Shown piece after piece: positions 14,539 to 54,517 of a DNA stretch of 64,000 bases (its first letter is position 1; each line of letters starts with the position of its first letter). The position numbers and the translations under genes are program-made. The stretch is from contig CAYOSW010000005.1 of the NCBI GenBank assembly GCA_964406775.1, positions 1,362 through 65,361 of the forward strand, read 5' to 3'. The stretch is from an uncultured Gammaproteobacteria bacterium. GTDB taxonomy: Bacteria; Patescibacteriota; Microgenomatia; Daviesbacterales; UBA10151. The notes beneath the pieces were generated by a model. It worked only from the letters and a program-made list of their open reading frames with translations, ran no database searches and was not told the origin of the DNA.

Positions 14539-15717
14539 TTAGGAGATAATTTTAGTAATAACTCCTGCTCCAACGGTTTTACCACCTTCGCGGATAGCAA
14601 ACCTTAAGCCTTCTTCCATAGCAACCGGAGTAATAAGTTTTACGTTAATTTTAGTTGTATCTCCGGGCATAGCCATTTCAACACCTTCAGGAAGTATAAC
14701 TTCTCCGGTCACGTCAGTTGTTCTGACATAAAACTGAGGTCTGTATCCTTTAAAGAAAGGTGTGTGTCTTCCGCCTTCGTCTTTACCCAAGATATAGATT
14801 TCAGCTTCAAATTCTGCGTGAGGTTTAATGGATCCCGGTTTTGCGAGAACTTGTCCGCGCTCTACATCGTCTTTTTCAATTCCGCGGAGCAATACTCCGG
14901 CGTTGTCTCCGGCTTCTCCCTGATCAAGTAATTTGTGGAACATTTCGATACCTGTTACAACTGATTTAGTTGTAGGTCTGATTCCGACAATTTCGATTTC
15001 CTCGTTGATCTTAACAACTCCTCTTTCGATTCTTCCTGTTACAACGGTTCCGCGTCCTTTAATTGAGAAAACGTCTTCAACAGCCATAAGGAAAGGCTTG
15101 TCTTTTTCGCGTACAGGGGTCGGAATCCATTCGTCTACCGCATTCATTAAGTCTTCTATTTCTTTTACTGCTTCTGCATCGCCTTCAAGAGCTTTTTTAG
15201 CAGATCCGCGGATAATAGGTGAATTTGAATCAAATTCATATTTCTTAAGTAAGTCGCGAACTTCTTCTTCAACAAGCTCAAGAAGTTCAGGATCGTCAAC
15301 CATATCGCATTTGTTAAGGAAAACAACAATAGCCGGAACTCCAACTTGTTTTGCAAGCAGTAAGTGCTCTCTTGTCTGAGGCATAGGTCCGTCCGGAGCG
15401 GAAACAACGAGGATTGCACCGTCAGTCTGAGCTGCACCGGTAATCATATTCTTGATGTAGTCTGCGTGACCAGGCATATCGATGTGTGCGTAGTGTCTTT
15501 TTTCTGTTTGATATTCCTGGTGAGAAATGTTGATTGTGATTCCGCGGGCTCTTTCTTCAGGAGCTGAATCGATTTGGTCGTATGCTCTGAATTCTGCCAT
15601 TCCTTTGTCTGCGAGGACTTTGGTAATAGCTGCGGTTAAGGTTGTCTTCCCGTGGTCAACGTGACCCATTGTTCCGACGTTTACGTGTGGTTTTGATCTG
15701 TCAAATGTTCCTGCCAT
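14539..15717 (-). CDS. tuf: elongation factor Tu
   Basis: 392 aa ORF with [23 protein letters not shown] and NKCD GTPase motifs. Confidence 0.97.
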
Positions 15718-15915: not shown

Positions 15916-16542
15916 GTGTCAAAGTTTCGTCCAGCAAGCCGGTCAGGGTTCATCTATAGTTTCCGTATGTCAGCCCAACCGGAAGCAGCAGTCGGCTATA
16001 GCCGTTTATTTCAATACTCCGCTACGGCAGAAGAGAGAGGTATAGTTGCAGACCAACCTGCACCGGAAATAAATCCGTCAGCACTTTCGGAGCTTTTAAG
16101 AGATGCTCTCCCCATCGGCCGGCCCGGTGAACTGGAACTCAGACACCCTTTCAGAGTTATTATTACGGCCTTATCGGTGACGGGAGACGATTACGCTGCC
16201 TACTTACCCGATGTTGAATCCGCACTCGATAAAACAGATACCGGACAGGTTACCGAAATTGGCGTCAGCGTTACTTTAGCCGGATCCGATATTCAGCCTG
16301 ACCGCGAAGCAGGACCTTTTATTAATCCGCTTCGTCTTTATGACGGAAAAACCGGATCCCTGGGTTTAAGCACAGTTACAGCTAACTTCCTCCTGGCTGC
16401 CGGAATAAGAAGACAGGCCGGAAGGATAAGAACGGGGTTTTCCCAGCCTCACGATACCCGGGATATGTACGGCTTTGCAAAACAAAGGACCGACCGGATG
16501 ATTGCCGGGCAGATTGAACCGGTTATCAGACTTAATACTTGA
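15916..16542 (+). CDS. hypothetical protein (A/G/R/P-rich, no recognisable domain), GC-richer than its surroundings
   Basis: 208 aa uninterrupted ORF in a segment that is visibly GC-richer than the flanking genes. No motif recognised. Inserted between tuf and fusA, on the strand opposite to both. Confidence 0.45.
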   Translation: MSKFRPASRSGFIYSFRMSAQPEAAVGYSRLFQYSATAEERGIVADQPAPEINPSALSELLRDALPIGRPGELELRHPFRVIITALSVTGDDYAAYLPDVESALDKTDTGQVTEIGVSVTLAGSDIQPDREAGPFINPLRLYDGKTGSLGLSTVTANFLLAAGIRRQAGRIRTGFSQPHDTRDMYGFAKQRTDRMIAGQIEPVIRLNT

Positions 16543-16574: not shown

Positions 16575-16952
16575 GTGAAGCATCAGTCAGGAATTGCCCA
16601 GGTTTATTTTCTTTTGATTATTCTTGCCGGAATTGCGATTTCTGTTTTCCTTGTTCAATATACTCAGGTTTTTAAACCCAAAGCTTATTCAGACGATGAG
16701 CTTGCCGCTTATTGCCAGGAAATTACCCAAAACAATACACCTAAAGGAGCCGGTCTTATCAGAATACCTGCCACGGCTCTGGACGGAAGATTTCAGGTCA
16801 TTGATGACTCGGTGGTTGACACCCAAAGCGGAGCGGCATTCTTTTACCTTGATTCATCAGACGGAACTCTGCGGGTACGGCGGAATCTTGATAATACCAA
16901 CGATAACGAAGAGAATAACCAGTTTATTGAAGTTTATATAGATAACCCTTAG
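16575..16952 (+). CDS. small membrane-anchored or secreted protein
   Basis: 125 aa ORF with an N-terminal hydrophobic helix (VYFLLIILAGIAISVFLV) and a polar, Asn/Asp-rich C-terminus. Ends 6 nt before the fusA stop, so the two genes are convergent. Confidence 0.45.
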   Translation: MKHQSGIAQVYFLLIILAGIAISVFLVQYTQVFKPKAYSDDELAAYCQEITQNNTPKGAGLIRIPATALDGRFQVIDDSVVDTQSGAAFFYLDSSDGTLRVRRNLDNTNDNEENNQFIEVYIDNP

Positions 16953-16957
16953 AAGAT

Positions 16958-19099
16958 TTAACTTTCAACTCTTCCGGTAAATCCGGAATCAGCAATAACT
17001 TTTTGAGTGATATTTGAAGGAACGGGCTCGTAATGTGATGGTTCAATATATGCTGTTGCTCTTCCCTGGGACATTGAACGGATAGCGGTAATATAGCCAG
17101 AAAGTTCAGCCAAAGGAACGAAGGCGTTGATAACAGTTGCATTTCCCCTCTTTTCGGTTCCCTGGATCTGGGCTCTTTTTGAGGATAAGTCTCCGATTAA
17201 ATCTCCCATAAATTCATCAGGAGTTGAAACCTCAACCTTCATTATCGGCTCAAGGAGAATCAAACCTGCTTTTTTGGCAGCTTCGGAAAGTCCTAAGGAA
17301 CCGGCAATCTTAAAGGCCATTTCCGAAGAATCAACATCGTGGAATGATCCGTCGTAAACCGTAACTTTAATATCCACAACCGGGAATCCTGCAAGCAGTC
17401 CGGTATCTTCTTTTTCTTCAACACCCTTACCGATAGGCGCAATGAATTCTTTCGGAATAGCTCCTCCGACGATTTCGGAAACGAATTCACGTCCGGTTCC
17501 TCTCGGGAGAGGCTCAATTCTGAGTAAACAGTGACCGTACTGACCGCGTCCTCCGGTTTGGCGCACATACTTACCTTCTCCTGTTGCCGGAAGAGTTATT
17601 GTTTCTTTATAGGCAACCTGAGGATCTCCGACGTTGGCTTCAACTTTAAATTCCCTCTTCATACGGTCAACGATAATTTCCAAATGAAGCTCACCCATTC
17701 CGGAAATTATTGTCTGTCCGGTTTCAGGGTTGGCTTTAACTCTGAAAGTCGGATCTTCTTCTGCCAGTCTTTGCAGAGCGAGTCCTAATTTTTCCTGATC
17801 GGATTTGGTTTTAGGCTCTATTGCAAGTGAGATAACGGGTTCTGCAAAGTTGATCGATTCCAAAACTAACGGATTTCCTTCATCAACAATTGAATCTCCG
17901 GTAATTGTATCTTTAAGACCCACAACCGCAACGATTTCTCCAGCATATGCTTCATCAATTTCTTCACGGTCGTTGGCGTGCATTAAAAGCACCCGGCCAA
18001 TACGTTCTTTGATTTGTTTTGTAGAATTGTAAATAGTTGATCCGGCTTTTAATGTTCCGGAATAAACTCTGACATAAGTTAAACGGCCGACGTGAGGATC
18101 AATCTGAATTTTAAAAGCGAGAGCCCCGAGAGGTGCATCTTTTGTGTTTGACTGAGTTACTTCTTCTCCTGTTTGGGAATTTTTACCCTTAACGTTCGGG
18201 ATATCAAGAGGTGAAGGTAAAAATTCCATAACCGCATCGAGCATTGGTTGCACACCTTTATTGCGCAGTGATGAGCCTGCCATAACCGGAACGATCTTTT
18301 TAGCGATAACTGCAGCTCTTAACGCTTTTTTAAGCTCATCGATTGAGATCTCTTCACCGTTTAAGTATTTCTCGAGCAGAACCTCGTCAGTTGAGGCAAT
18401 CTCCTCAACTAATTTCTCGCGGTGTTTTTTAACTTCATCAACCATATCGGCCGGAATGGGCTGTTCCTCAAATTTAGCGCCGGTCTGATCACCGAGCCAA
18501 ATCCAAGCCTTTTCGGTTAAAAGATCAACTATCCCTTTGAAATCGTTTTCAACACCAATAGGTAAGTTATAAGGAAGAGCATTCGCACCCAGGCGGTCAC
18601 GGGCGGATTGGATAGTTCCCAAAAAGTCAGCGCCTAAAACATCCATTTTATTGGAGAAGGCAATCAAAGGTACACCGTATTTATCTGCCTGTCTCCAGAC
18701 AGTTTCGGTTTGGGACTGAACACCTGAAGCCGAATCAAGAACTATGACTCCCCCGTCAAGCACACGAAGCGAACGCTCAACCTCAACTGTAAAGTCAACG
18801 TGACCGGGAGTATCGATTAAGTTAATCCGGAATTCTTCATCTTTGAAAGGACCGGATTTGGGAGTCCAGAAAGTGGTAACAGCTGCGGATACGATAGTAA
18901 TACCGCGCTCGCGCTCCTGTTCCATCCAATCGGTGGTGGTTGTACCTTCATCAATATCACCGATCTTATAAGTACGTCCGGTATAAAAAAGAATACGTTC
19001 GGTGGTAGTAGTTTTTCCCGCATCAATGTGGGCAATGATCCCGATATTTCTGATACGGTCTAACGGAAAATCGCGTTTTGTTTTCGTTGTAACTGCCAT
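16958..19099 (-). CDS. fusA: elongation factor G
   Basis: 713 aa ORF with [20 protein letters not shown] and NKMD motifs and the EF-G domain IV/V region. Confidence 0.97.
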
Positions 19100-19138: not shown

Positions 19139-19399
19139 CTAAGATTGATGAGCTGTAGAATTCTCCGGATTACCCTCAAGATCTTTGAGTATTTTCTTGG
19201 TTTCGCCGATACGGGCGGATAGAACTTCCCCCTGTTCCGTCAGCATCTGATAGGCTGCATTCTCGCTATTATCGCCCATATCCGTAGCGTCGCCTCTTTG
19301 TTCCATAATTGAGGCATACTCCTTCTCAAGAGTTGCGAGCTTCTCGCTCCACATTTTTACTTTTTCTTGCTTTATCTTATTGTTTGCCATAAAACACAA
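19139..19399 (-). CDS. stand-alone GreA/GreB N-terminal coiled-coil domain protein (mini-Gre)
   Basis: 86 aa ORF carrying the Gre finger-tip motif GDNSENAAY (compare canonical GDLSENAEY) within a predicted coiled coil. There is no C-terminal FKBP-like domain. The true start is probably MANNKIKQ. Confidence 0.6.
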   Translation of the reverse strand: MCFMANNKIKQEKVKMWSEKLATLEKEYASIMEQRGDATDMGDNSENAAYQMLTEQGEVLSARIGETKKILKDLEGNPENSTAHQS

Positions 19400-19527
19400 A
19401 GCCCCCTTGAGATTAATTCTTGGGGGTATTTGATGGTTACATACTAAAAAAGATTTCCGGAAATGTCAAACCTTAAGAGAACGATTGAATCCCTCTATAT
19501 CTGCTGTGCGTGTGGTAAAATTGCCGA

Positions 19528-20826
19528 ATGGAATTTGAGGTAATTGAACAAACTTATCCTGAAAACTTCCGCTCGGACATAACGCGCGAGCTCGGCGACC
19601 ATATTAACAAACGCCACAGCATCGTCTTTATAGGTATGCGCAGGGTCGGCATATCTAATTTCTTAAGGTTTTTTCTGTATCACAAACAACTCCGCCAAAA
19701 AACTTCGGCAGACAAACACCTCCTTATCGCCATCGATTTAAACGATCTTATCGAACGGACTATTCCTTCTTTTTGGGTATTAACGTTAAAGAGAGTTCTT
19801 GATACCGTCGAAGGGTCCGATTTTGCCCCTAAAACTAAAAAATATATCGAGAATCTATTTCTTGACGGTATCCAGTCCAAAAATACTTTTCTTCTTATAG
19901 AAAATATTAAAAAAGCTCTAAGTAAAATTATTTCCGAAGGTGTTTTCCCGACAATTTTTTTCATCCGGTTTGACAGGATTTCCGAATCCGCAACAGCCGA
20001 TTTTCTGGCAAATCTCGAAGGACTTAAAAGCTCAACCCACGGCAAGTTAAGCTATGTGTTCACAACTTCGCGCGGATTAAACTCCATCTCGCCAAAAGTC
20101 TTCTCGCACACTTCTCTTTCTCTTGCCGAAACGGAGATATTTTTAAAACCGGCAAGCCCGGAAGATCTTCAGGTAATTTGCGATGCCTATATCAAGAGAT
20201 TCGGGCTCCGGATTTCCGCGGAAACGGAGAAAGAATTAATTAAGCTTACCGGAGGCTACGTCCAATACCTCCAGCTGGCTCTAATTACCTTAAACGAGCC
20301 TGAGGTGAATAATAAAAAAATCAGTAATCTGTCCGAACTCTTAGAAAACGACGAGCGGATCAAACTTCAATCGGAAGAACTTTGGGAAGGCCTTACCGGA
20401 GATGAACAGGAAATCCTGCTTAAAGTTGTTGAGGGTGAAAAACTTACGGAAAAAGATTTAAAAGACAATAAATATTTATCAGACAGCGGATTTATGGTTA
20501 AACTCAAAAACGGCTTCAATATTTTCAGTCCGCTTTTTGAAAAGTTCCTGAAGAAAAAAGCCGAAAAAGGGGAGGGGAGTAACGGGAAAATCGATCTCTC
20601 CAAAAAAGAGCATCTGCTATTTTCCTTCCTTAAAGACAATTTAGGTGAGATTTGTGAGCGGGAAGCCATAATTGAGGCCGTCTGGCCGGAAGAGGAGGCT
20701 TTAGGGGTCTCTGATTGGGCAATTGACCGCCTTGTCGCCCGCCTGCGCAAAAAGATTAAGGATGAAGGCGAATTTGAAATAGTAACAATAAAAACCCGGG
20801 GATTTAAATTAATAGGAAAAAATTAA
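19528..20826 (+). CDS. STAND/AAA-like NTPase with degenerate P-loop fused to a C-terminal OmpR/PhoB-type winged-helix DNA-binding domain
   Basis: 432 aa ORF. The N-terminal region has IVFIGMRRVGISNF, which fits GxxxxGxS with Ile in the Lys position, and a Walker B-like LLIAIDLND. The C-terminus (EREAIIEAVWPEE...DWAIDRLVARLRKKIKDEG.FEIVTIKTRGFKLIG) matches the trans_reg_C wHTH. Confidence 0.55.
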   Translation: MEFEVIEQTYPENFRSDITRELGDHINKRHSIVFIGMRRVGISNFLRFFLYHKQLRQKTSADKHLLIAIDLNDLIERTIPSFWVLTLKRVLDTVEGSDFAPKTKKYIENLFLDGIQSKNTFLLIENIKKALSKIISEGVFPTIFFIRFDRISESATADFLANLEGLKSSTHGKLSYVFTTSRGLNSISPKVFSHTSLSLAETEIFLKPASPEDLQVICDAYIKRFGLRISAETEKELIKLTGGYVQYLQLALITLNEPEVNNKKISNLSELLENDERIKLQSEELWEGLTGDEQEILLKVVEGEKLTEKDLKDNKYLSDSGFMVKLKNGFNIFSPLFEKFLKKKAEKGEGSNGKIDLSKKEHLLFSFLKDNLGEICEREAIIEAVWPEEEALGVSDWAIDRLVARLRKKIKDEGEFEIVTIKTRGFKLIGKN

Positions 20827-21161
20827 CTGTAATTTCTGGTTCTGTCCAGATATGGCGCTTCTTTCCAATCGTGACTTATTCTTCTTCCTGAAAAGCTGGA
20901 GTCTGTAGCTACAGATAAACTTCTGAAATGGTGGCCGTCAGCACCGTGCTCACGTTCTATACCATCTTCATCAGGATATTTGTCTCCATAGTCAGCCCAA
21001 ACAGTCACGGCAGTTTTAGCCAGTTCCGCCGGCTCATCCCAATTTATTTTCGCTCCGTAGGGTAAAACCTCAAAACCTAAACCTTTAGGCTTCAAATGGT
21101 GAAACCTTTCTCTTGTAGTTCTTCGTTCTGTCCCGGGTCTGCCTGCGATATGTTCTTTCAT
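20823..21161 (-). CDS. hypothetical protein (His/Asp/Gly-rich)
   Basis: 112 aa ORF in a relatively GC-rich segment. No recognisable motif. First gene after the rpsG 3' remnant. Confidence 0.35.
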   Translation of the reverse strand: MKEHIAGRPGTERRTTRERFHHLKPKGLGFEVLPYGAKINWDEPAELAKTAVTVWADYGDKYPDEDGIEREHGADGHHFRSLSVATDSSFSGRRISHDWKEAPYLDRTRNYS

Positions 21162-21290: not shown

Positions 21291-21764
21291 TTACCATCTA
21301 AAATGCGCAAAAGCCTTATTGGCTTCAGCCATTCTGAGAGTATCTTCTTTCTTCTTTGCTGCGTACCCCTTGCCTTCTGCAGCGTCCATCAATTCCTGGG
21401 CTAATTTTAAGTGGAATCCGTGGAATTCTTTATTTGATTTAGCGCGGGCACCGGCGATTATCCAGCGGATCGCCAAAGATTCTTTTCTTTCTCCTCTGAC
21501 TTCAACGGGAACCTGGTAAGAGGCTCCTCCAACCCTTCTCGGACGGACTTCCATCTTCGGAGCAACGGTTGCAAGAGCGGTATCCAAAACAACCAAAGGT
21601 TTTTTGCCTGTTTTTTCGATTTGTTCGAGTGCATCATAAACCAATCTTTGTGCGGTAGTTTTTTTACCGTCACGCATTATTCTATTGATAATTTTGGTTA
21701 TAATTTTGGATCCGTAAATCGGATCTGCCTGAATTATTCTTTTCGGTGCTTTACCTGATCTCAT
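21291..21764 (-). CDS. rpsG: 30S ribosomal protein S7
   Basis: 157 aa ORF with S7 family motifs (PVVEVRPRRVGGASYQVPVEV). Immediately downstream of rpsL. Confidence 0.95.
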   Translation of the reverse strand: MRSGKAPKRIIQADPIYGSKIITKIINRIMRDGKKTTAQRLVYDALEQIEKTGKKPLVVLDTALATVAPKMEVRPRRVGGASYQVPVEVRGERKESLAIRWIIAGARAKSNKEFHGFHLKLAQELMDAAEGKGYAAKKKEDTLRMAEANKAFAHFRW

Positions 21765-22207
21765 TAGCTTGCAGCTGCGGTCTTAGGACCTGCGACTGCT
21801 CCCCCTTTCTTCTGGCCGTATTTGCTTCTGGATGTCTTTCTCTTTGCAACTCCGGACAAATCGAACTTACCGCGGATTAAATGATATTTAACTCCGGGCA
21901 AATCCTTAACTCTTCCTCCACGGACCAAAACGATACCGTGCTCTGCTAAATCGTGACCTTCACCCATAATATAAGCTGTAACTTCGGTTCTGTTGGACAA
22001 TCTGACCCTCGCTACTTTACGTAAAGCCGAATTAGGTTTTTTCGGAGTCATTGTTCTAACCAAAGTAACAACTCCCCTTTTCTGAGGGTTAAAGTTAGTA
22101 ACATATTTACGGTCTTTTGCATTATAAGAGCGTCTCAGGGCTGTCGCCTTGATTTTTCTTGCTGACGTCTTACGTCCTTTTCGTACTAATTGATTAATTG
22201 TTGGCAT
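21764..22207 (-). CDS. rpsL: 30S ribosomal protein S12
   Basis: 147 aa [16 protein letters not shown]-terminus, the [10 protein letters not shown] loop and the [13 protein letters not shown] motif. Confidence 0.95.
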
Positions 22208-22318: not shown

Positions 22319-25300
22319 TTAGGATGGTTCCATTGCGGCCCGTTCAGGGCTTGTTGGAATCAACCGGCCAATAATAACATTTTCTTTCAGTCCAATCAAC
22401 TTGTCGATCTTACCTGAAGCTGCTGCTTCCGAAAGAACTGTTGTTGTTTCAACGAATGAAGCTGCTGACAGGAAGCTTTCGGTCTGGAGTGAAGCTCTGG
22501 TTATACCCAAAACGATTACTCCTGCAGTTGCCGGCTCTCCGCCCTCTGCCAAGACTCTGGTGTTCTCTTCTTCGAATCTGGTTTTATTTACAACTTCTCC
22601 GGGCAATAATACTGTATCGCCTTGAGATTCGATTCTGACTTTATCACTCATCTTGCGGACGATAATTTCAAAGTGCTTTTCATTAATATGCACACCCTGG
22701 GATTCGTAAACTTCTTTAGCTGCGTCAACAATGTATCTTTGAGCTTCTTTAAGTCCTTTTACTCTTAAGACTTCTTTAATATCCAAATGTCCTGCGGCAA
22801 GTTGAGTTCCTGCGGAAATCAACTGACCGTCTTCAACCAAGAGATCTGCTGTGATCGGAATTGCATATTCCCTTTCTTCGTGAGGCTTGGTTGTGGTTCT
22901 GACCCTGATAACTCTTCCTGTTTCGGTGTTAGAGATAGTAACTTTTCCGGCAATTTCCGAAATCGGGCTGGTTGATTTTGGAGTTCTGGCCTCAAAAAGT
23001 TCTTCAACACGGGGCAAACCTTGTGTAATATCGATACCGACAACTCCTCCTGAGTGGAAAGTACGCATTGTGAGCTGTGTACCGGGCTCTCCGATAGCCT
23101 GAGCTGCAACAACTCCGACAGGTGTTCCGAGACCTACCGGTTTTCTGGATGACAGATCAAGACCATAGCAGGCTGCACAAATTCCATATCTTGCTTCGCA
23201 GGTAAGAGGAGCGCGCACTAAAACTTCAGTAACTTCACTCTTGTAAATTGCTTCTACTTCCGGCTCTTCAAGATAAATTCCATCCGGAAGAAGCTGTTTT
23301 TTAGTTTTCGGATCTACAACTTTTCCGAGCAACTTGCGTCCCAGGAATCTGGTTGAATTTGATGCCGGATTATCGTGAATAACTTCAACAGGGAATCCGT
23401 TTTGGGTTCCGCAGTCCTCAATTCTGACGATCATATCGTGGGATACATCTACCAATCTTCTGGTCAGATATCCTGCATCGGCGGTTCTGATAGCACGGTC
23501 TGCAACTCCCTTTCTCGCTCCTCTACAGGAAGTGAAGTACTCGAACACTCCGAGTCCTTCACGGTAGTTGGATTTTGTAGGAAGTTCCACGATTTTACCT
23601 GTCGGATCAACTGAGAATCCTCTCATTCCGGCAGTTTGCGCGATCTGAGCTGTAGTTGCACGGGCTCCTCCGGACTGCATAATGATCTGGATAGGATTAT
23701 CAGGATCGATTGCCGCAAATGTTTTTCTGACAATTTCGTCTCCAATTCTGGTCCAGACTTCCTGGGAAAGAGCGCGTTTTTCTTCGCTGGTAATGATTTC
23801 CTTTTTAAAGTTATCTTCAATATCGGCAATTTCTTTATCACCCTTAGCAATTAAGGATTTCTTCTCAGGGATAATTTTGTTGTCAAAAATACCGACTGAA
23901 AGTCCGGAAATTGTTGCGCCCCAGAAACCGAATTCTTTAATATCGTCAATCAGTTGAGCAACTTCATCTTTGGTGAAGGCTTTAAATGCCTGCATTATGA
24001 TTCTTGAGATAACTCCGGCGTTAATTGTTTCGTTGATAAAGCGGAGTGATTCAGGCAGGAAGTTGTTAAAAATAATTCTTCCGACTGTTGTTTCGATAAT
24101 TGCATCGCCGATTTTAGCTTTAATCGGAGCTCTTAAATCAAGATTTGCTGTTTGGAATGCAAATTCGGCTTCTTCTCTTGAGTAAACCTTATCGGTAAGC
24201 ACTTTTGTCTTATCAATCGAAGTTACGAAGTAAGAACCCAATGCCATTTCACGGTTAGGAACGTTGATAGGTGATGAATTCGCAGGGCGCAGAATGTTTT
24301 CTTTTGCCATCATCAGATTTTTAGCTTCTTCTTTGGCTTTTTCGGACAAAGGTACGTGAACAGCCATTTGGTCTCCGTCAAAGTCGGCATTAAATCCGGC
24401 ACAGATACAAGGGTGAATCTGGATTGCGTTTCCGTCAATTAAGATCGGGAAGAATGCCTGAATACCTAATCTGTGCAGGGTAGGCGCACGGTTGATCAGA
24501 ACCGGGTGATCTTTGATAACTTCTTCCAAAATATCCCAAACCTCCGGAGGTCTGAATTCCAAAACATTTTTAGCTCCTTTTACGTTTGAAGCCAGGCCTC
24601 TTGAGATAACTTCGCGCAGTACGAAAGGCTTAAACATCTCAAGCGCCATTTCTTTAGGAAGTCCGACCTGAGCCAATTTAAGTTTAGGACCGACGATAAT
24701 AACCGAACGTCCTGAGTAATCTACCCTTTTTCCGAGCAAATTCTGTCTGAATCTTCCCTGTTTTCCTCTCAACATCTCGGAAAGTGATCTTAACTGGTGG
24801 GTTCCGGCTCTTCTGGTTGTTCTGGATGAAGAATCGATTAATGAATCGACTGCTTCCTGAAGCATTCTTTTCTCGTTTCTTAAAATAATTTCAGGAGCAC
24901 CGAGATCAATAAGTCTTTTCAAACGGTTATTTCTGTTGATAACTCTTCTGTAGAGATCGTTTAAGTCCGAAGTTGCAAATCTTCCTCCCGGTAATTGCAC
25001 CATAGGGCGCAAGTCAGGCGGGAGAACAGGCAATATTGTCAAAACCATTGAAGCCGGAGAAATTGTTGATTTTCTCATTCCTTCAACGAGTCTTAATCTT
25101 TTAGTGGCTTTGATATGGCGCTGACCTGAAGATTTTGAAACCTCGACTCTAAGCTCTGAAGCTAATTTATCCAGATCAATCTTATTTAATACCTCAAGCA
25201 ATGCTTCAGCTCCCATCTTAACTTCAAGGAAGTCTGCAACTCCGTACTCATCAAGTTTGAAGTATTCATCCTCCGAAAGAAGTTTCATCGGATTAATATT

Positions 25301-26005
25301 TTTAACCAATTCGGAAACTGTTTTGTAAATTTCCTCAAGCTGAGCGAGCTCTACCTGGTTTTGTTCTTTGAGCTGAGCAATTTTTCTTCTTGCTTCGATT
25401 TGGAATTCGGCAGCCTGGAGCTCGAATTTCTCGTCATTGCCGATTTTCTTCTTAAGTTCTTTTAATTCTCCGGTAGTTACGTCTTCCGCTTCCTTGATTG
25501 TTTTTTCCAAAGCTTCTTTTGAAGCGTCCTGTTTTTCGCCGAGCTGTTTTTCAAGTTTTTCGATAGCTTCAGCTTTTTTATCAGTATCAATTCCGGTAAC
25601 CAGGTATGAAGCAAAGTAAATTATTGCCTCAAGATTCTTCATAGTTAAATCAAGAATCAGGGATAATTTGCTCGGCGCACCTTTAACAAACCAGATATGG
25701 GCCACAGGCGAAGCTAAAGTAATATGACCCATTCTCTCGCGTCTTACTTTGGATTGTGTGACCTCAACTCCGCACTTGTCGCAGATAACACCACGGTAAC
25801 GGATTCTTTTATATTTTCCGCAGTAACATTCCCAATCCTTTGTCGGGCCGAAAATATTTTCAGCAAATAATCCGTCTTTTTCAGCTTTCAAAGTCCGGTA
25901 ATTAATTGTTTCCGGGCGTGTAACCTCACCGAATGACCAGCTTCTGATAATATCGGGTGAAGCGATAGCTACTTTAAGTTGATCAAAATCGAGTAAATTA
26001 TTCAT
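22319..26005 (-). CDS. rpoC: DNA-directed RNA polymerase subunit beta'
   Basis: 1228 aa ORF with the N-terminal zinc finger (CYCGKYKRIRYRGVICDKCGVEV), the NADFDGDQM catalytic loop and the trigger-loop region. Confidence 0.97.
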   Translation of the reverse strand: MNNLLDFDQLKVAIASPDIIRSWSFGEVTRPETINYRTLKAEKDGLFAENIFGPTKDWECYCGKYKRIRYRGVICDKCGVEVTQSKVRRERMGHITLASPVAHIWFVKGAPSKLSLILDLTMKNLEAIIYFASYLVTGIDTDKKAEAIEKLEKQLGEKQDASKEALEKTIKEAEDVTTGELKELKKKIGNDEKFELQAAEFQIEARRKIAQLKEQNQVELAQLEEIYKTVSELVKNINPMKLLSEDEYFKLDEYGVADFLEVKMGAEALLEVLNKIDLDKLASELRVEVSKSSGQRHIKATKRLRLVEGMRKSTISPASMVLTILPVLPPDLRPMVQLPGGRFATSDLNDLYRRVINRNNRLKRLIDLGAPEIILRNEKRMLQEAVDSLIDSSSRTTRRAGTHQLRSLSEMLRGKQGRFRQNLLGKRVDYSGRSVIIVGPKLKLAQVGLPKEMALEMFKPFVLREVISRGLASNVKGAKNVLEFRPPEVWDILEEVIKDHPVLINRAPTLHRLGIQAFFPILIDGNAIQIHPCICAGFNADFDGDQMAVHVPLSEKAKEEAKNLMMAKENILRPANSSPINVPNREMALGSYFVTSIDKTKVLTDKVYSREEAEFAFQTANLDLRAPIKAKIGDAIIETTVGRIIFNNFLPESLRFINETINAGVISRIIMQAFKAFTKDEVAQLIDDIKEFGFWGATISGLSVGIFDNKIIPEKKSLIAKGDKEIADIEDNFKKEIITSEEKRALSQEVWTRIGDEIVRKTFAAIDPDNPIQIIMQSGGARATTAQIAQTAGMRGFSVDPTGKIVELPTKSNYREGLGVFEYFTSCRGARKGVADRAIRTADAGYLTRRLVDVSHDMIVRIEDCGTQNGFPVEVIHDNPASNSTRFLGRKLLGKVVDPKTKKQLLPDGIYLEEPEVEAIYKSEVTEVLVRAPLTCEARYGICAACYGLDLSSRKPVGLGTPVGVVAAQAIGEPGTQLTMRTFHSGGVVGIDITQGLPRVEELFEARTPKSTSPISEIAGKVTISNTETGRVIRVRTTTKPHEEREYAIPITADLLVEDGQLISAGTQLAAGHLDIKEVLRVKGLKEAQRYIVDAAKEVYESQGVHINEKHFEIIVRKMSDKVRIESQGDTVLLPGEVVNKTRFEEENTRVLAEGGEPATAGVIVLGITRASLQTESFLSAASFVETTTVLSEAAASGKIDKLIGLKENVIIGRLIPTSPERAAMEPS

Positions 26006-45031: not shown

Positions 45032-47398
45032 TTAAAGTCGTGCCCGTTCTGAAATATTTGCCTCAACCGCGGCCCGGTCTCTCCCGTATGTCAGCCTGGA
45101 TAGTTCGCGTATCGCCCGCCCGACTTCAGGACGGCGCATTTTTTGCCATTCCTCATAGGACGGGAATGTCGTGTCTACGGAGAAAGGATGAACGGGCTCT
45201 CCCTGCACCTGGGTTTTTACATAGATGTGGCGCGCTTCAATATTAACCAGATCCTGCTCATTAAAAGTAGGCGCAAACTCGTGCTGGAGGAAGTTGGCAT
45301 CGGTGACACCGACACGGAAAGCGATCACCGTACCGACGTTACCGAAAACGGCATTTTTTAACTCCTCGCCTATCTGACCTATAAATTGGTTAGCGACGGT
45401 TAAATTCAGCTTATATTTACGCGCCTCGGCCAAAATTTCAGCAAAAGTGTCGGTTGCGAAGTTTTGGAACTCATCAACGTACAGGAAAAAGTCGCGTCTT
45501 TGTTCCTGAGGAATATCGGTTCGGCTCATTGCAGCGGCTAAAATCTTCGGAACCAGAACCAGCCCTAAAAAGTTTGAATATTCATCCCCGATCCTCCCTT
45601 TTGATAAATTCACAATCAGAATCTTTCCCTGGTCCATAACCTGACGCAGATTGAACGAAGAGACAGATTGGCCGATGATATTTCTCATCATCATATTGGT
45701 AACAAACCGCCCGAACTTTGATACGTTATAATCCAAAATTTCCGATTTATGGAATTCTGCAGTTTGGGCAATCTGGTCGGTCCAATACCTGCGGACAACC
45801 GGATCCTGAACGTAGGGCAAAAGCTCCTTTACGAATTCCGGATCAGTCAAAACACGTACCACCTCAAGAAAAGTATTGCCGGGTTTACTCATACAGGTCA
45901 GCATCGCATTACGGACGTTATGCTCAAACCTCGGCCCGATAATACCGGTTTTATGAGGATCATAAAGCTTGTACATCAGTCCGATGATTGAAGCAACCAC
46001 AAAGTGTTTTTGCTCCTCGGTTGTGGCTTCAAGCATATTCAAACCGAAGGGGCGGGCAGAATCAGAGGGGTCAAAATAAATTACATCCTGGGCGCGGTTG
46101 GGCGGAATCCTCTCCAACATATCTTCCGCCGCATCTCCGTGGGGATCAATAAAACAAATACCCCGACCGGCATAAATATCCTGAATCATCATAGACTTTA
46201 AAAGCTCGGTTTTTCCGGTACCGGTTCTTCCGATGATATACATATGCCTTTGACGGTCAAAATCGGAAATAAACACCGGCCGTTCCTGACCCCGGAATTT
46301 CGATTTACCGATATAAAGACCTTTTGTCGGAATTTTTTCAGGAGGAGGGGCCGATTTGGCGGGAAGCCACTGAATATGCGGAGTTTCAACTTGTTTATTC
46401 GGTAAGTGGAAAAGCGAGGAAATCTCGTCCGCAGTTAAAACGGAAAGTTTATCAAATCTGGGTAGATATCTGTAAACAAAATCTCTGATAAAGCCTTTTT
46501 GTGAAGGAATTTTGGCTCCAGTAAAGCCGTTATACGGCCCGTTAAACTGCTCAAAAGCCGCTTTAATGTTGCCTAAATGAGCCTTAGCGGCTTCCTCCGA
46601 AGTCGAGGATGTAACAATCCGAACTATGGTTGAAAATCCGGCTTTAGTTATCTTTCCCTCGACTGCCTCAAGCTGTTTCTGATCCGGAGGAGCTTTCGGC
46701 TTCTCACCGTCTCCCGGATCGCGCTCCTTTTTCAGGAATTTCTTTCCCGAATTCTTAAAGTCATCGCCTGCAGGAGCTATAAGTAATTGAATTACCGCCC
46801 CTTCTCCCTGCTGCATTTTTCCGAGTGCTGAGGTAATACCTGATAACGGATCTGTCGGAAGCTCCTTATAAGTTTTTATCGGAAAATAATCGGAAGATTT
46901 AAGTTTGTAAGCGGTATAGGCAACCTTGCCGGTTTCCGAAAAAATATTATATTCAGGAACTTCTTTTACCGATGCGTCCGGATATGCTCCGTTGATTTGT
47001 TTTTCAATTAAATCCTGGTATTTTTTATGGCAGGCGACGTAAAATCTGATCGATTCCGGCAGCGCCACAATCTCAAAGGCAATATGAGGTTGGGGCTTTA
47101 AGTCCTTAAACATCCCCAAAAATCCTCCCGCTCCGATTTTTATGGAATACAGAGCTGAGATAAACTGCTCGGCCGCGTCAATTTTTACTTCATTGGCCTT
47201 AGGAACGGTAATTTGCAGCAGTACAAACCCCAATGAATATTTCTCCCGCTCCCGGTATTTATACAGATTCTTAAAATATGGATAAAAATATATCAAAAAA
47301 CCAATCAGAATGAGTGTTCCGAACAGGGCGACTAAAACCAAAACTGCAAAAAACAATAAGTCCGGTCCCTGAGCAACAGTAGTTTGAGTAACTTCCAT
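45032..47398 (-). CDS. membrane-anchored FtsK/HerA/TraD-superfamily P-loop ATPase (type IV coupling-protein-like)
   Basis: 788 aa ORF. Two N-terminal TM helices, Walker A HMYIIGRTGTGKTE and Walker B FFLYVDEFQNF. The architecture resembles VirD4/TraG/TraD coupling proteins. Family assignment is tentative. Confidence 0.5.
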   Translation of the reverse strand: MEVTQTTVAQGPDLLFFAVLVLVALFGTLILIGFLIYFYPYFKNLYKYREREKYSLGFVLLQITVPKANEVKIDAAEQFISALYSIKIGAGGFLGMFKDLKPQPHIAFEIVALPESIRFYVACHKKYQDLIEKQINGAYPDASVKEVPEYNIFSETGKVAYTAYKLKSSDYFPIKTYKELPTDPLSGITSALGKMQQGEGAVIQLLIAPAGDDFKNSGKKFLKKERDPGDGEKPKAPPDQKQLEAVEGKITKAGFSTIVRIVTSSTSEEAAKAHLGNIKAAFEQFNGPYNGFTGAKIPSQKGFIRDFVYRYLPRFDKLSVLTADEISSLFHLPNKQVETPHIQWLPAKSAPPPEKIPTKGLYIGKSKFRGQERPVFISDFDRQRHMYIIGRTGTGKTELLKSMMIQDIYAGRGICFIDPHGDAAEDMLERIPPNRAQDVIYFDPSDSARPFGLNMLEATTEEQKHFVVASIIGLMYKLYDPHKTGIIGPRFEHNVRNAMLTCMSKPGNTFLEVVRVLTDPEFVKELLPYVQDPVVRRYWTDQIAQTAEFHKSEILDYNVSKFGRFVTNMMMRNIIGQSVSSFNLRQVMDQGKILIVNLSKGRIGDEYSNFLGLVLVPKILAAAMSRTDIPQEQRRDFFLYVDEFQNFATDTFAEILAEARKYKLNLTVANQFIGQIGEELKNAVFGNVGTVIAFRVGVTDANFLQHEFAPTFNEQDLVNIEARHIYVKTQVQGEPVHPFSVDTTFPSYEEWQKMRRPEVGRAIRELSRLTYGRDRAAVEANISERARL

Positions 47399-52237: not shown

Positions 52238-52411
52238 ATGTTAAGTCCCGCAACTCCCCAAAGCACTTCAAATTACTCACATCAAAATAAACAAAACCCG
52301 CGTCCGGATCAGCAACTTTGTCCCGGCTGCGGTTATATAATGGGAAGTCTTGCCGGAAGCCAAGATGCCGTCTGTAGAAATTGCGGTTTTAAGGATCCCT
52401 GTTGCGAATAA
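52238..52411 (+). CDS. small zinc-ribbon peptide (C-x2-C ... C-x2-C)
   Basis: Not in the ORF track because it is under 60 aa. Hand translation gives MLSPATPQSTSNYSHQNKQNPRPDQQLCPGCGYIMGSLAGSQDAVCRNCGFKDPCCE. Confidence 0.3.
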   Translation: MLSPATPQSTSNYSHQNKQNPRPDQQLCPGCGYIMGSLAGSQDAVCRNCGFKDPCCE

Positions 52412-52473
52412 CTGCCGATTGTCATTATTCTGTCAAGAAATACATCCATCTTTACAGATAATTAACCAAATTA

Positions 52474-53493
52474 ATGGATAAAAATATTTTTGAGAACTTT
52501 GTAAAAACTTTTAATACTTCAACCCGGAAAGCGGCCATCGCAGCTTATAAGGAGATTCAAAAACTCCATAAGGAACAACCTGATCCGCAATCTAGAGATA
52601 ATAAAGCGCTCGGAAGATTAATTGATAAAGCCGCAGTTGAAGCAATGCAGGAAGTTTTTGAGACTCAGCCTCATTTTTATATAGAAATAAGAGGCAGTGA
52701 GGGCAGAAAAGATACCCGCAGAGACGGAATAGAGAGTCCGGATTTATACGGGTCTTACGGTCCTGAAAAAGGAGCCGTTGTAGAAATTGTTAATGATGCT
52801 GTTGAAGGAACAGCTTTTGCTTCAAGAAATGTTCCCGGAGCCGGTTCGGTTTTAACCGCTGCACTGAATCAACAAAACGGTTTAATTCAAACCGGTAATT
52901 TTGATTATATGAATAAACTTTTCGGACCTGCGCCTCTCAAAGGAAAAATCTCGCTCGAATTAAGTCCTTCGGAAAATATTAAGATCGCCTTAAAGGAATT
53001 AAAGATCCGTAACCCTGCAGATTTAGCCGTCGTTATTCTTGACCGCCCAAGAAATCAATTTGAAATTCAATCGGCAGAAAGTTTAGGAACGACTGTTATT
53101 CTCATTCCGGGAGGAGATCTGACTCCAGGACTTTTGGCTGTATCGGATCCGGGAATAATTTCCAAACTTAAAAACAGCAAGATTCCTCGGTTAGCTAAAG
53201 GAGTCCTTGTTATGGGCAGCGGCGGTTGGGAAGAAGGAATTATCGTTGCTGCGGCAGCTAAAGCTTCGGGAGGATTTGCCCAGGGGAAAATTTATTCCGA
53301 AGACAAAGAAGCGGTTGAACAGGCTAAAATTCTGGAGGTCAGTGATTTAGTTCCGGCAGAACCCGAATCTCTACTGGTAAGTCTTACCCCGATTACTGGC
53401 GATCCCTGGTTCGGCATTTCAGGCATATCAACTGAACTTAAATCTCATACAATTAACATAACTCATAAGGGCCTTGATATCTCGGAGAATTAG
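52474..53493 (+). CDS. glpX: fructose-1,6-bisphosphatase class II (GlpX-like)
   Basis: 339 aa ORF with GlpX-family motifs (ILDRPR, GTAF, GSGGWEEGIIVAAAAKASGG). Confidence 0.75.
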   Translation: MDKNIFENFVKTFNTSTRKAAIAAYKEIQKLHKEQPDPQSRDNKALGRLIDKAAVEAMQEVFETQPHFYIEIRGSEGRKDTRRDGIESPDLYGSYGPEKGAVVEIVNDAVEGTAFASRNVPGAGSVLTAALNQQNGLIQTGNFDYMNKLFGPAPLKGKISLELSPSENIKIALKELKIRNPADLAVVILDRPRNQFEIQSAESLGTTVILIPGGDLTPGLLAVSDPGIISKLKNSKIPRLAKGVLVMGSGGWEEGIIVAAAAKASGGFAQGKIYSEDKEAVEQAKILEVSDLVPAEPESLLVSLTPITGDPWFGISGISTELKSHTINITHKGLDISEN

Positions 53494-53542
53494 TCAGAAT
53501 GGTGTCTAGCAAATTAGTTATTTCTTTAGCATAATACTTTTT

Positions 53543-54517
53543 ATGGATGTTTCAGAAATTGCAAAAAAATTATCATCTCCCCCGGGAGTAATCGTCGCAG
53601 CAGATGAGTCACCTTCAACAATGAAGGCCCGCTTGGATGCAGTCGGTATACCCGATTCATTTGAAATGAGGGCTAAGTGGCGGGAATTAATTACCGGGGC
53701 CGATATCGCAGAGGCCGGCGCCACTGGAATAATCTTACACCCCGAGATGCTCGATGTGCCGGAGGTGATAAGCAACTTAAAAAAACATAATATTGTCATC
53801 ATCGTTAAAATAGACGGTGGGCTTTCCGATTTTAACGACCGGGGCGAACAGGTTACGAAATATGCTGAAAATTTGACGGAACTTTTGCAAAAATGGAAAG
53901 ATTTAGGAGCTTCCGCCACAAAGTTCAGAAGTGTTTTTAAAATAACCGATTCAACCCCTTCAGATGAATTAATTGCCGCAAATGCTAAGGTCCAGGCAAC
54001 GCTGGCAAAGATGACTCAGGATGCGGGTATGGTACCTATGATCGAGCCTGAGGTTTTAAGAGCCGGAGGCCACTCTCTGCAAAAAGATGCCGAAGTAACA
54101 AGTAAGGTTTTAGATACCGTATTCGAAGAAGTAAAAAAAGCCGGGGTTGATCTAACAACCTCAATACTTAAACCGAATATGATTACCCCCGGAGAAGATT
54201 CTCAAGATCAAGCGGATGCAGAGGATGTGGCAAAAGCCACGCTGAATGTATTAAATAATCACGCACCCAAGGAGCTTGCAGGTATTAACTTCCTGTCCGG
54301 AGGAATCAGCGATGAATTATCAGAACAATACTTGAATAAGATTTGCCAGCTGGCAAAAGAACAAGGCCAGGAAAATATAAGCGCTTCTTTCGGAAGAGCG
54401 ATAGTCGGGGCTCCACTTAAAATTTGGCTCGGAAAAGAAGAAAATATTGAAAAAGCCAGGGAATCTTTGGTGCAAAGAATTCAAAAAAGCAGCCTCGCCC
54501 GCCAGGGAAAACTCTAA
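53543..54517 (+). CDS. fructose-bisphosphate aldolase class I
   Basis: 324 aa ORF with GVIVAADESPSTMKARL, which matches the class I aldolase ILAADES motif. Also has the Schiff-base Lys region and a TIM-barrel length. Confidence 0.8.
   Translation: MDVSEIAKKLSSPPGVIVAADESPSTMKARLDAVGIPDSFEMRAKWRELITGADIAEAGATGIILHPEMLDVPEVISNLKKHNIVIIVKIDGGLSDFNDRGEQVTKYAENLTELLQKWKDLGASATKFRSVFKITDSTPSDELIAANAKVQATLAKMTQDAGMVPMIEPEVLRAGGHSLQKDAEVTSKVLDTVFEEVKKAGVDLTTSILKPNMITPGEDSQDQADAEDVAKATLNVLNNHAPKELAGINFLSGGISDELSEQYLNKICQLAKEQGQENISASFGRAIVGAPLKIWLGKEENIEKARESLVQRIQKSSLARQGKL

Follow-up and report, generated by a model that had tools for sequence, protein, structure and literature searches.

A Microgenomatia protein family with a remodelled STAND/AAA+ pocket, an OmpR-type DNA-binding domain and predicted TGACA repeat operators

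Background

In MalT and the other LAL regulators a signal-controlled NOD oligomerises the DNA-binding domain on repeated boxes; that domain is a LuxR-type helix-turn-helix (HTH), a sensor domain is present and ATP is needed. The SARP and AfsR regulators have an N-terminal OmpR-type winged helix-turn-helix (wHTH), which in SARPs binds 11-bp-phased repeats, together with BTAD. PhoB and WalR have a DNA-binding domain of the same family, joined to a receiver domain with a phospho-acceptor Asp and served by a cognate kinase. Sites of the OmpR/PhoB family, such as the Pho box and the WalR box, are laid out as hexamer-N5-hexamer, head-to-tail with an 11-bp period, and the direct repeats of Pho boxes lie next to or over a weak -35 element. 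CggR, the central glycolytic gene repressor of Bacillus and a member of the unrelated SorC family, is encoded beside glycolytic genes, binds tandem direct repeats and responds to fructose-1,6-bisphosphate (FBP). These systems are compared here with a protein encoded among ribosomal and translation genes (Table 1) in a 64,000-nucleotide stretch of contig CAYOSW010000005.1 (assembly GCA_964406775.1), referred to throughout as the window.

The window protein has a STAND/AAA+ module with a degenerate nucleotide pocket and a C-terminal OmpR-type wHTH. It is reasonably likely that it represents a one-protein regulator found throughout Microgenomatia, in which a non-hydrolysing STAND/AAA+ module and an OmpR wHTH work on TGACA repeats and act on the FBP node. 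To our knowledge, bacteria of the candidate phyla radiation (CPR) have very few transcription factors, and almost none of these has a predicted function. No paper on the family was found in literature searches. The analysis yields a class-wide regulator family, a concrete predicted operator, (C/T)TGACA-N5-(C/T)TGACA, and four candidate targets: fructose-1,6-bisphosphatase (FBPase), FBP aldolase, phosphoglycerate kinase (PGK) and hexokinase.

Results and Discussion

The nucleotide pocket

A profile of the N-terminal 345 aa was compared with 1.84 billion representative proteins, giving 1038 proteins at E <=1e-3. The close family, referred to here as Ile-type, has the motifs GM[KR]RVGIS and hhhh[ILNV]RFDR, whereas the distant, Lys-type members (E 1e-20 to 1e-30) have G[IV]GSVGKSNLLR and hhhhDEFD[DE]. 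Alignment of the Ile-type with 19 Lys-bearing relatives using hhalign covers 335 columns (probability 100%, E 4.4e-40) and places I42 on the invariant Walker A Lys. The original prediction, made from the letters of the window, was therefore right to read GMRRVGIS as a P-loop with Ile in place of Lys. It also took the segment hhhhDLND for Walker B. This segment is strand beta2, which is conserved as such in the Lys-type; the true Walker B position is TIFFIRFDR (aa 142-150), where 'PTIFFI-RFD' of the Ile-type is aligned on 'rlVFLLDEFD' of the Lys-type. Here the DE pair has become I146-R147, with the Asp lost and the Glu changed to R147, and R150 has been gained. Judged by these motifs, the pocket is without the residues for ATP hydrolysis, the Walker A Lys being Ile and the Walker B DE being Ile-Arg. 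The proposal of a non-hydrolysing nucleotide-binding domain or pseudo-ATPase holds in that the catalytic residues are missing; the Walker B on which it partly rested was the wrong one.

Both motifs are spanned by 110 representative clusters, of which 68 are Ile-type (61 with a wHTH) and 35 Lys-type (26 with a wHTH). The losses are accompanied by gains. A basic residue is found at P-loop position 38 in 74 of 79 Ile-type clusters against 1 of 36 Lys-type clusters, and at position 39 in 77 of 79 against none of 36. Arg is present at 147 in 61 of 68 Ile-type and 5 of 35 Lys-type clusters, and at 150 in 65 of 68 and 1 of 35. An acidic residue at the Walker B pair occurs in none of the 68 Ile-type clusters and in 32 of the 35 Lys-type clusters. 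In a conservation profile of 56 full-length representatives (mutual identity <=50%), the most conserved 12-mer of the whole protein is P-loop 36-47 (0.88), followed by recognition helix 394-405 (0.86). Residues G36, R39, V40, G41 and I42 are invariant in 38 homologues. The pocket looks remodelled, not decayed: its losses co-vary with the gain of four basic residues, and conservation in the protein peaks at the P-loop, whereas a relic would drift. By standard P-loop NTPase geometry, residues 38, 39, 147 and 150 would line the phosphate/Mg2+ site. This suggests that the pocket has become a Mg-free, strongly basic site for an anionic ligand.

The Lys-type relatives (for example P0229, P0237, P0241 and P0221) are metagenomic and uncharacterised, and looking up their clusters yielded no taxonomy. 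They have the same three-part module and wHTH as the window protein, but keep GxxxxGK[ST] and hhhhDE and lack the four basic substitutions. Lys-type relatives score above the Pfam cut-offs for nSTAND1 and AAA_35, and two have an extra N-terminal Ser/Thr kinase. The arrangement of an NTPase with a C-terminal wHTH had been thought uncommon. It is shared by the Lys-type sister group, in which 26 of the 35 representative clusters have the module with a C-terminal Trans_reg_C, and is therefore recurrent and not rare. On the sequence relationships, the window protein is best described as a derived, non-hydrolysing branch of an uncharacterised nSTAND1/AAA_35-like NTPase-plus-Trans_reg_C family. It provides a natural example of a STAND/AAA+ switch in which catalysis has been lost while selection on the pocket has been kept and tightened, and bears on how pseudo-NTPases stay useful as signalling modules.

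The ligand of a rebuilt, Lys-less and highly conserved P-loop is the structural question posed by this family. The pocket would bind a phosphorylated ligand without Mg2+ or turnover, and binding would control self-association; we conjecture that either a sugar bisphosphate or a nucleotide may serve as the ligand. An alternative proposal is that the pocket binds ATP or ADP without hydrolysis, so that the protein would sense energy charge or nucleotides as classical STAND proteins do, with no change on the DNA side. This is possible, if somewhat doubtful. It is consistent with retention of the G36/G41 glycine scaffold, S43, D149 and the T179/R182 sensor-1 region, with the strongest constraint in the protein falling on the P-loop, and with the resemblance of the sister proteins to regular NTPases. 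However, no Ile-type cluster has the residues that hold the beta and gamma phosphates and Mg2+, namely the Walker A Lys and the two Walker B acids, and the four added basic residues indicate a differently charged, Mg-free ligand site. A GxP-like motif, GGHPGL in relatives and GGYVQY in the window protein, was considered as a third lost nucleotide contact. It was not counted, as MalT has a similar Pro-less motif and yet binds ATP.

Fold of the N-terminal module and the DNA-binding domain

An AlphaFold2 (AF2) model was built on the 38 homologues (pLDDT 80.9, pTM 0.76). The N-terminal 345 aa form an AAA+/STAND module made up of a nucleotide-binding domain (NBD), a lid and a winged helix. The model has, in order, strand 32-36, the P-loop and helix 42-51, strand 64-70, three long helices, strand 140-146, strands 175-180 and 202-206, lid 211-256, winged helix 276-332, a disordered linker and the OmpR wHTH. 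The NBD topology is beta1-P-loop-alpha1-beta2...beta3-beta4-beta5. The lid is aligned by hhalign to the TGGHPGLL region of the Lys-type relatives, and the internal winged helix consists of helices 276-287, 291-301, 308-313 and 315-320 with a hairpin at 323-326 / 329-332. The layout of STAND NTPases, a P-loop NBD, a helical domain and a winged helix forming the NOD, is thus found by AF2, Foldseek and hhalign. The best Foldseek matches in the PDB are PAB2304 (2qen, E 1.3e-6), Orc1/Cdc6 (2qby, 1w5t), MalT (8bob), SSO1545 (2fna), CED-4 and Apaf-1, and the STAND/AAA-like assignment originally made for the N-terminus stands at the level of fold. The archaeal ATPase_2 proteins PAB2304 and SSO1545 and Orc1/Cdc6, which are the closest structures for NBD, lid and winged helix, differ in having intact Walker motifs and no OmpR domain; the likeness is one of fold only (8-18% identity). 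There is also a weak PDB sequence match at the P-loop. The window protein has no direct Pfam match to nSTAND1 or AAA_35 at E up to 1, and AAA_35 is matched by 4 of the 38 homologues (best E 2.5e-6).

After the NOD there is only an 11-aa linker and the wHTH, without C-terminal sensor repeats (TPR, WD40 or LRR). The C-terminal trans_reg_C domain proposed at the outset is significant: Trans_reg_C is the sole Pfam domain of the protein (E 2e-13, 50.7 bits against a cut-off of 26.2) and is matched by all 38 aligned homologues. NCBIfam and PDB sequence searches with this region found OmpR-family DNA-binding domains alone. The three-helix core (helices 359-370, 378-385 and 397-411) and the beta-hairpin wing (strands 416-421 and 425-430) are present in the AF2 model.

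The window protein therefore shares its DNA-binding domain family with PhoB and WalR, and differs from them in having no receiver domain, phospho-acceptor Asp or cognate kinase; Response_reg was not matched by the protein or its homologues in Pfam. Dimerisation and activation must then come from the STAND module. In this respect it resembles the STAND regulators MalT and AfsR, and in its handling of DNA PhoB. Unlike MalT, it has an OmpR wHTH and no sensor repeats, and there is no Pfam match to the GerE/LuxR HTH in the protein or its homologues. It differs from SARP and AfsR in the C-terminal position of the wHTH and in having no BTAD match.

Repeats upstream of the family genes

Hexamers of the form CTGACA are present in 39 of 60 non-redundant regions upstream of the family genes, compared with 26 of 322 other intergenic regions (Fisher p 5e-21). 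In 44 of 79 loci the longer motif GACA-N5-CTGACA (>=9/10 positions) is found no more than 300 nt before the start codon, and 26 of the 35 perfect matches in the 1.76 million positions searched fall within those upstream intervals. Motif-aligned sequences reveal an array of 3-4 hexamers with 11-bp phasing: cTTGAC, a weak unit, nTGACA and CTGACA. Measured from GAC to GAC, the upstream cTTGAC and the first GACA downstream of it are 22 bp apart in 22 of 40 loci and 11 bp apart in 5. About 8 nt separate the end of the last unit from a core promoter, TTGCTA-N17-TAnAAT. Most of the related loci lack a Shine-Dalgarno sequence and have a gap of 5-8 nt between the end of the -10 element and the ATG; the regulator mRNA is therefore probably leaderless. 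The GCTTGAC of the first repeat was considered as the -35 element of this promoter and ruled out, having no -10 at 16-19 nt and a separate TTGCTA-N17-TAnAAT downstream.

The motif accompanies the regulator gene through four unrelated genomic contexts. It is also found beyond the Ile-type. P0221, the closest Lys-type relative examined, has TGACR-N5 repeats (TTGACG-N5-TTGACA-N5-CTGACG) before its own gene, which lies beside iPGM, enolase and PPDK.

Extra copies of GCTTGAC...GACA-N5-CTGACA are found between PGK, hexokinase and FBPase genes or at their 3' ends, in the opposite orientation to these genes (L029 3173-3480; L032 2790; L040 2709 and 3117; L054 2337; L064 3737; L017 1899). In L029 a GC-rich stretch of about 300 nt without an ORF or Rfam match comes after the extra element; this element might reflect antisense transcription or an unknown RNA. 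Rfam found no RNA family in the six loci with extra motif copies or in L029 3100-3500.

Distribution and gene neighbours

Clustered at 90% identity, the homologues of the window protein number over 1500, almost all of them about 430 aa long. Scanning the GTDB species representatives gave 201 loci that encode a family member, titled Davies-, Levy- or Curtissbacteria or "Patescibacteria". The closest relatives are in Daviesbacteria (72-74% identity). Judging by these homologues, the family spans Microgenomatia and is conserved across the class. Many of the loci (L008, L010, L011, L014 and others) are titled 'uncultured Gammaproteobacteria bacterium' and one Saccharimonadales; these look like placeholder or wrong taxonomy labels.

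Open reading frames (ORFs) in the compared loci are simple calls made for this analysis. On these calls, 26 of 73 loci have a sugar-phosphate gene as the first or second ORF upstream of the regulator, and no locus has one as any of the first three ORFs downstream. Divergent upstream neighbours include an operon of aldolase II, class I FBPase and PGK, a glpX-type FBPase, FBPase_3, an IMPase/FBPase-type phosphatase, hexokinase, a PfkB kinase, transaldolase and GH1. The occurrence of four non-homologous FBPase classes at the same position is a classic signature of a functional link.

Other surroundings vary. The regulator gene is upstream of a valyl-tRNA synthetase (ValRS)-like gene in about 40 loci of other clades, and elsewhere adjoins an ABC transporter or sits between an FtsK/glpX-type FBPase block and a HhH-GPD gene. 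The position between rpsG and greN-fusA is found in about 12 loci, with protein identities of 49-99%, and is confined to one Daviesbacteria-like clade. As there is no universal neighbour, a dedicated role at the rps and fus genes is not supported. In L092 an FBPase-aldolase pair is directly upstream of greN-fusA, inside the str-operon gap, and in L044 a glpX-type FBPase is divergent to the regulator, also inside the str gap. Because of these two loci, it is probable that the regulator and the FBPase/aldolase genes entered the str gap together and were later separated in the lineage of the window.

It could be argued that the TGACA array is a site for another factor or a promoter element, that the family protein binds other DNA, and that closeness to sugar genes is synteny without regulation. 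The first repeat, GCTTGAC, does resemble a -35 element, about 44% of the own promoters, including that of the window gene, have no copy of the motif, and the link between regulator and motif is a prediction from sequence. Yet the first repeat has no -10 at the right distance, and a separate core promoter follows the array. The motif tracks the gene through unrelated contexts and into a distant outgroup, and its 11-bp head-to-tail geometry is that expected of OmpR/PhoB-family sites. We regard this explanation as improbable.

Predicted FBPase and aldolase operators in the window

The link between the regulator and the FBPase and aldolase genes was predicted from other genomes before these genes were found in the window, 32 kb from the regulator. 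A tblastn search of the window with sugar-enzyme queries from other loci found none; this was a false negative because the window FBPase is divergent and the aldolase is class I, and both were later found by Pfam. A pattern derived from the consensus, DGACA-N5-HTGACW, is matched exactly twice in the 64 kb, where 0.32 matches would be expected; the significance of the two matches lies in their position and conservation and not in their number. One lies upstream of each gene, inverted relative to it and abutting a weak -35. The aldolase -10, CATAAT at 53530-53535, is 7 nt before the ATG at 53543, the same layout as in the regulator promoter.

The two sites were compared with those of four other genomes (L090-L093), in which the FBPase is 65-73% identical to that of the window. 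The aldolase site is kept in all four, and its core, GTCA..A....GTC.AG.AA, is invariant across the five genomes, amid DNA that cannot otherwise be aligned. Three of the four (L090, L091 and L093) also keep the FBPase site. This suggests that the regulator controls the FBPase and aldolase genes rather than the adjacent ribosomal genes.

A 57-aa Cys-rich ORF (52238..52411, + strand; CPGCG...CRNCGFKDPCCE), zinc-ribbon-like, stops shortly upstream of the FBPase operator, and L090, L091 and L093 conserve the part that encodes its C-terminus.

The mechanism we propose is that the ligand-controlled STAND module brings OmpR-type wHTH domains together as oligomers on phased TGACA hexamers, with the wHTH domains binding head-to-tail on (C/T)TGACA hexamers spaced 11 bp apart. 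In most lineages the 3-4 hexamers just upstream of the regulator's own leaderless promoter would lead to autoregulation, and this region is often common to divergent FBPase, aldolase, PGK or hexokinase genes. In the window the own-promoter array would have been lost, leaving the two-hexamer sites of the FBPase and FBP-aldolase promoters, which are centred near -41 to -44. Because a two-hexamer site at this distance adjoins a poor -35, as in the Pho box, the likeliest mode is PhoB-like activation of the FBP node of glycolysis/gluconeogenesis.

It can further be imagined that the P-loop pocket has turned into a Mg2+-free basic receptor for a sugar bisphosphate, for example FBP, which would drive wHTH oligomerisation on the 11-bp-phased repeats. 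This version of the mechanism is speculative and rather unlikely. If true, the family would be a master switch of glycolysis/gluconeogenesis across Microgenomatia; we know of no earlier report of a STAND NOD reused as a metabolite rather than a nucleotide sensor. CggR is a functional analogy only, its effector being established and the one here hypothesised.

Several points weigh against regulation of the FBP node by this family. About 44% of the loci are without the array, among them the window and its closest relatives L007, L009 and L053, and the compared loci are phylogenetically related and not independent. The count of two matches in the window is marginal, since >=2 matches occur in 6 of 100 shuffles. 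A few extra copies, at the 3' ends of PGK or hexokinase genes or before unannotated GC-rich DNA, are not accounted for by this scheme. Another OmpR-type factor could bind the TGACA motif. On the ligand side, some nucleotide binding by the pocket may persist, given the precedent of MalT.

A local role was originally suggested for the regulator, as a switch for an 'inserted cassette' or for the adjacent rpsL-rpsG or fusA genes. The gene does lie on the opposite strand between rpsG and greN-fusA, a placement kept in the dozen or so loci of one clade despite protein identities as low as 49%. Most members of the family are elsewhere, beside ValRS, ABC transporter or FtsK/FBPase genes, and in the window the motif occurs only before the FBPase and FBP-aldolase genes. 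Nor was there a sign of an operator nearby: a search of 19380-19540 for the direct repeats that had been anticipated, and for inverted ones, found a single 9-nt chance pair, and a motif scan (position weight matrix and pattern) of the window near the regulator had no match around 19-21 kb. The neighbouring 112-aa ORF is an orphan with two clusters, and the filler genes vary among relatives. A local switch is thus very improbable.

The Lys-type relatives match nSTAND1, a clade described in conflict systems (PMC8195603), and one relative adjoins TCAD9/AAA_35-GAF-kinase genes. An anti-phage or conflict-system STAND NTPase (Avs-like or nSTAND1-type) is nevertheless scarcely credible here: the best PADLOC match is PDC-S01 (E 3.5e-4, 17.6 bits), in the P-loop region only, there is no effector or sensor-repeat domain, and the gene stands alone among housekeeping genes with strong class-wide conservation, a pattern contrary to that of defence islands. 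Orc1/Cdc6 among the best fold matches and the phased repeats upstream of the gene itself bring to mind an initiator of the Orc1/Cdc6 or DnaA kind that binds phased boxes at an origin. This reading can be set aside with hardly a reservation, as the ATP site is degenerate, the cumulative GC skew is monotonic across the window and does not turn near 19-21 kb, the repeats are at fixed promoter positions of metabolic genes and the nearest sequence relatives are nSTAND1/AAA_35 proteins, not initiators.

The locus in the window

The coordinates of the features are given in Table 1. The regulator ORF is on the opposite strand within a block of ribosomal and translation genes otherwise on the minus strand. 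Its own promoter has a predicted extended -10. Relative to L007, L009 and L053 there is a 41-bp insertion (19470..19512 region) between the ancestral -35, TTTGCT in those loci and TTTCCG in the window, and the -10. The TTGACA at 19469..19464 (- strand) is the predicted -35 of the divergent greN-fusA promoter (TTGACA-17-TAGTAT).

Table 1. Features of the regulator gene, its product, its predicted targets and its neighbours in the window (positions of the window; aa, residues of the regulator)
Feature	Position	Strand	Remarks
Regulator ORF, degenerate STAND/AAA+ module and OmpR-type wHTH	19528..20826	+	432 aa; ORF list
Degenerate Walker A, GMRRVGIS (aa 36-43)	19633..19656	+	I42 at Lys position; K/R38 and R39 gained
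Strand beta2, LLIAIDLND (aa 65-73)	19720..19746	+	AF2 strand 64-70; aligned to beta2 'hhhhD' of Lys-type relatives
Walker B equivalent, strand beta3, TIFFIRFDR (aa 142-150)	19951..19977	+	AF2 strand 140-146; aligned to hhhhDEFD
Strand beta4 / sensor-1 region, SYVFTTSR (aa 175-182)	20050..20073	+	T179 invariant; R182 >=90% conserved
Helical lid (aa 211-256), including GGYVQYLQLALI	20158..20295	+	AF2 helices 211-225, 231-241, 245-256
Internal winged helix of NOD (aa 276-332)	20353..20523	+	AF2; Orc/PAB2304-type fold
OmpR/PhoB-type wHTH (Trans_reg_C, PF00486, aa 354-428)	20587..20811	+	Pfam, NCBIfam, PDB
Recognition helix region, VSDWAIDRLVARLRKK (aa 394-409)	20707..20754	+	near-invariant across family
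Extended -10 element, TGgTAAAAT	19513..19521	+	6 nt before ATG; predicted from sequence
Predicted operator, TGACA-N5-ATGACA	52420..52435	-	39-54 nt upstream of FBPase ATG; kept in L090, L091, L093
glpX-type fructose-1,6-bisphosphatase, predicted target	52474..53493	+	Pfam PF03320, E 4e-33
Predicted operator, AGACA-N5-CTGACT	53492..53507	-	36-51 nt upstream of aldolase ATG; abuts weak -35
Class I fructose-bisphosphate aldolase, predicted target	53543..54517	+	Pfam PF00274, E 9e-73
rpoB, rpoC	rpoC 22319..26005	-	start of block order
rpsL	21764..22207	-	
rpsG	21291..21764	-	
Orphan ORF	20823..21161	-	112 aa; convergent with regulator, 4-nt overlap with its stop codon
greN, GreA N-terminal-domain-only protein	19139..19399	-	86 aa; directly upstream of fusA
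fusA	16958..19099	-	
tuf	14539..15717	-	

The orphan ORF has no Pfam, NCBIfam or PADLOC match and only two homologue clusters (100% and 71% identity) among 5.8 billion proteins. The filler genes at this position, between the regulator and rpsG, differ among relatives, for example His_Phos_1 in L006. The greN product consists of the GreA/GreB N-terminal coiled coil alone (Pfam GreA_GreB_N, E 4.8e-6, above cut-off), retaining the acidic tip motif GDNSENAAY, and its position before fusA is kept in >=8 related loci and in L092. It is a 'mini-Gre' factor without the globular domain that binds RNA polymerase. Its gene carries a Shine-Dalgarno sequence, AAGGGGG, unlike the regulator gene.

Two plus-strand ORFs between tuf and fusA, 15916..16542 (208 aa) and 16575..16952 (125 aa), have no Pfam match and make a second break of the str operon by opposite-strand genes. 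A 788-aa protein at 45032..47398 (- strand) has weak matches to T4SS-DNA_transf, TrwB_AAD_bind and TraG-D_C of type IV secretion coupling, which is unusual content for a small CPR genome.

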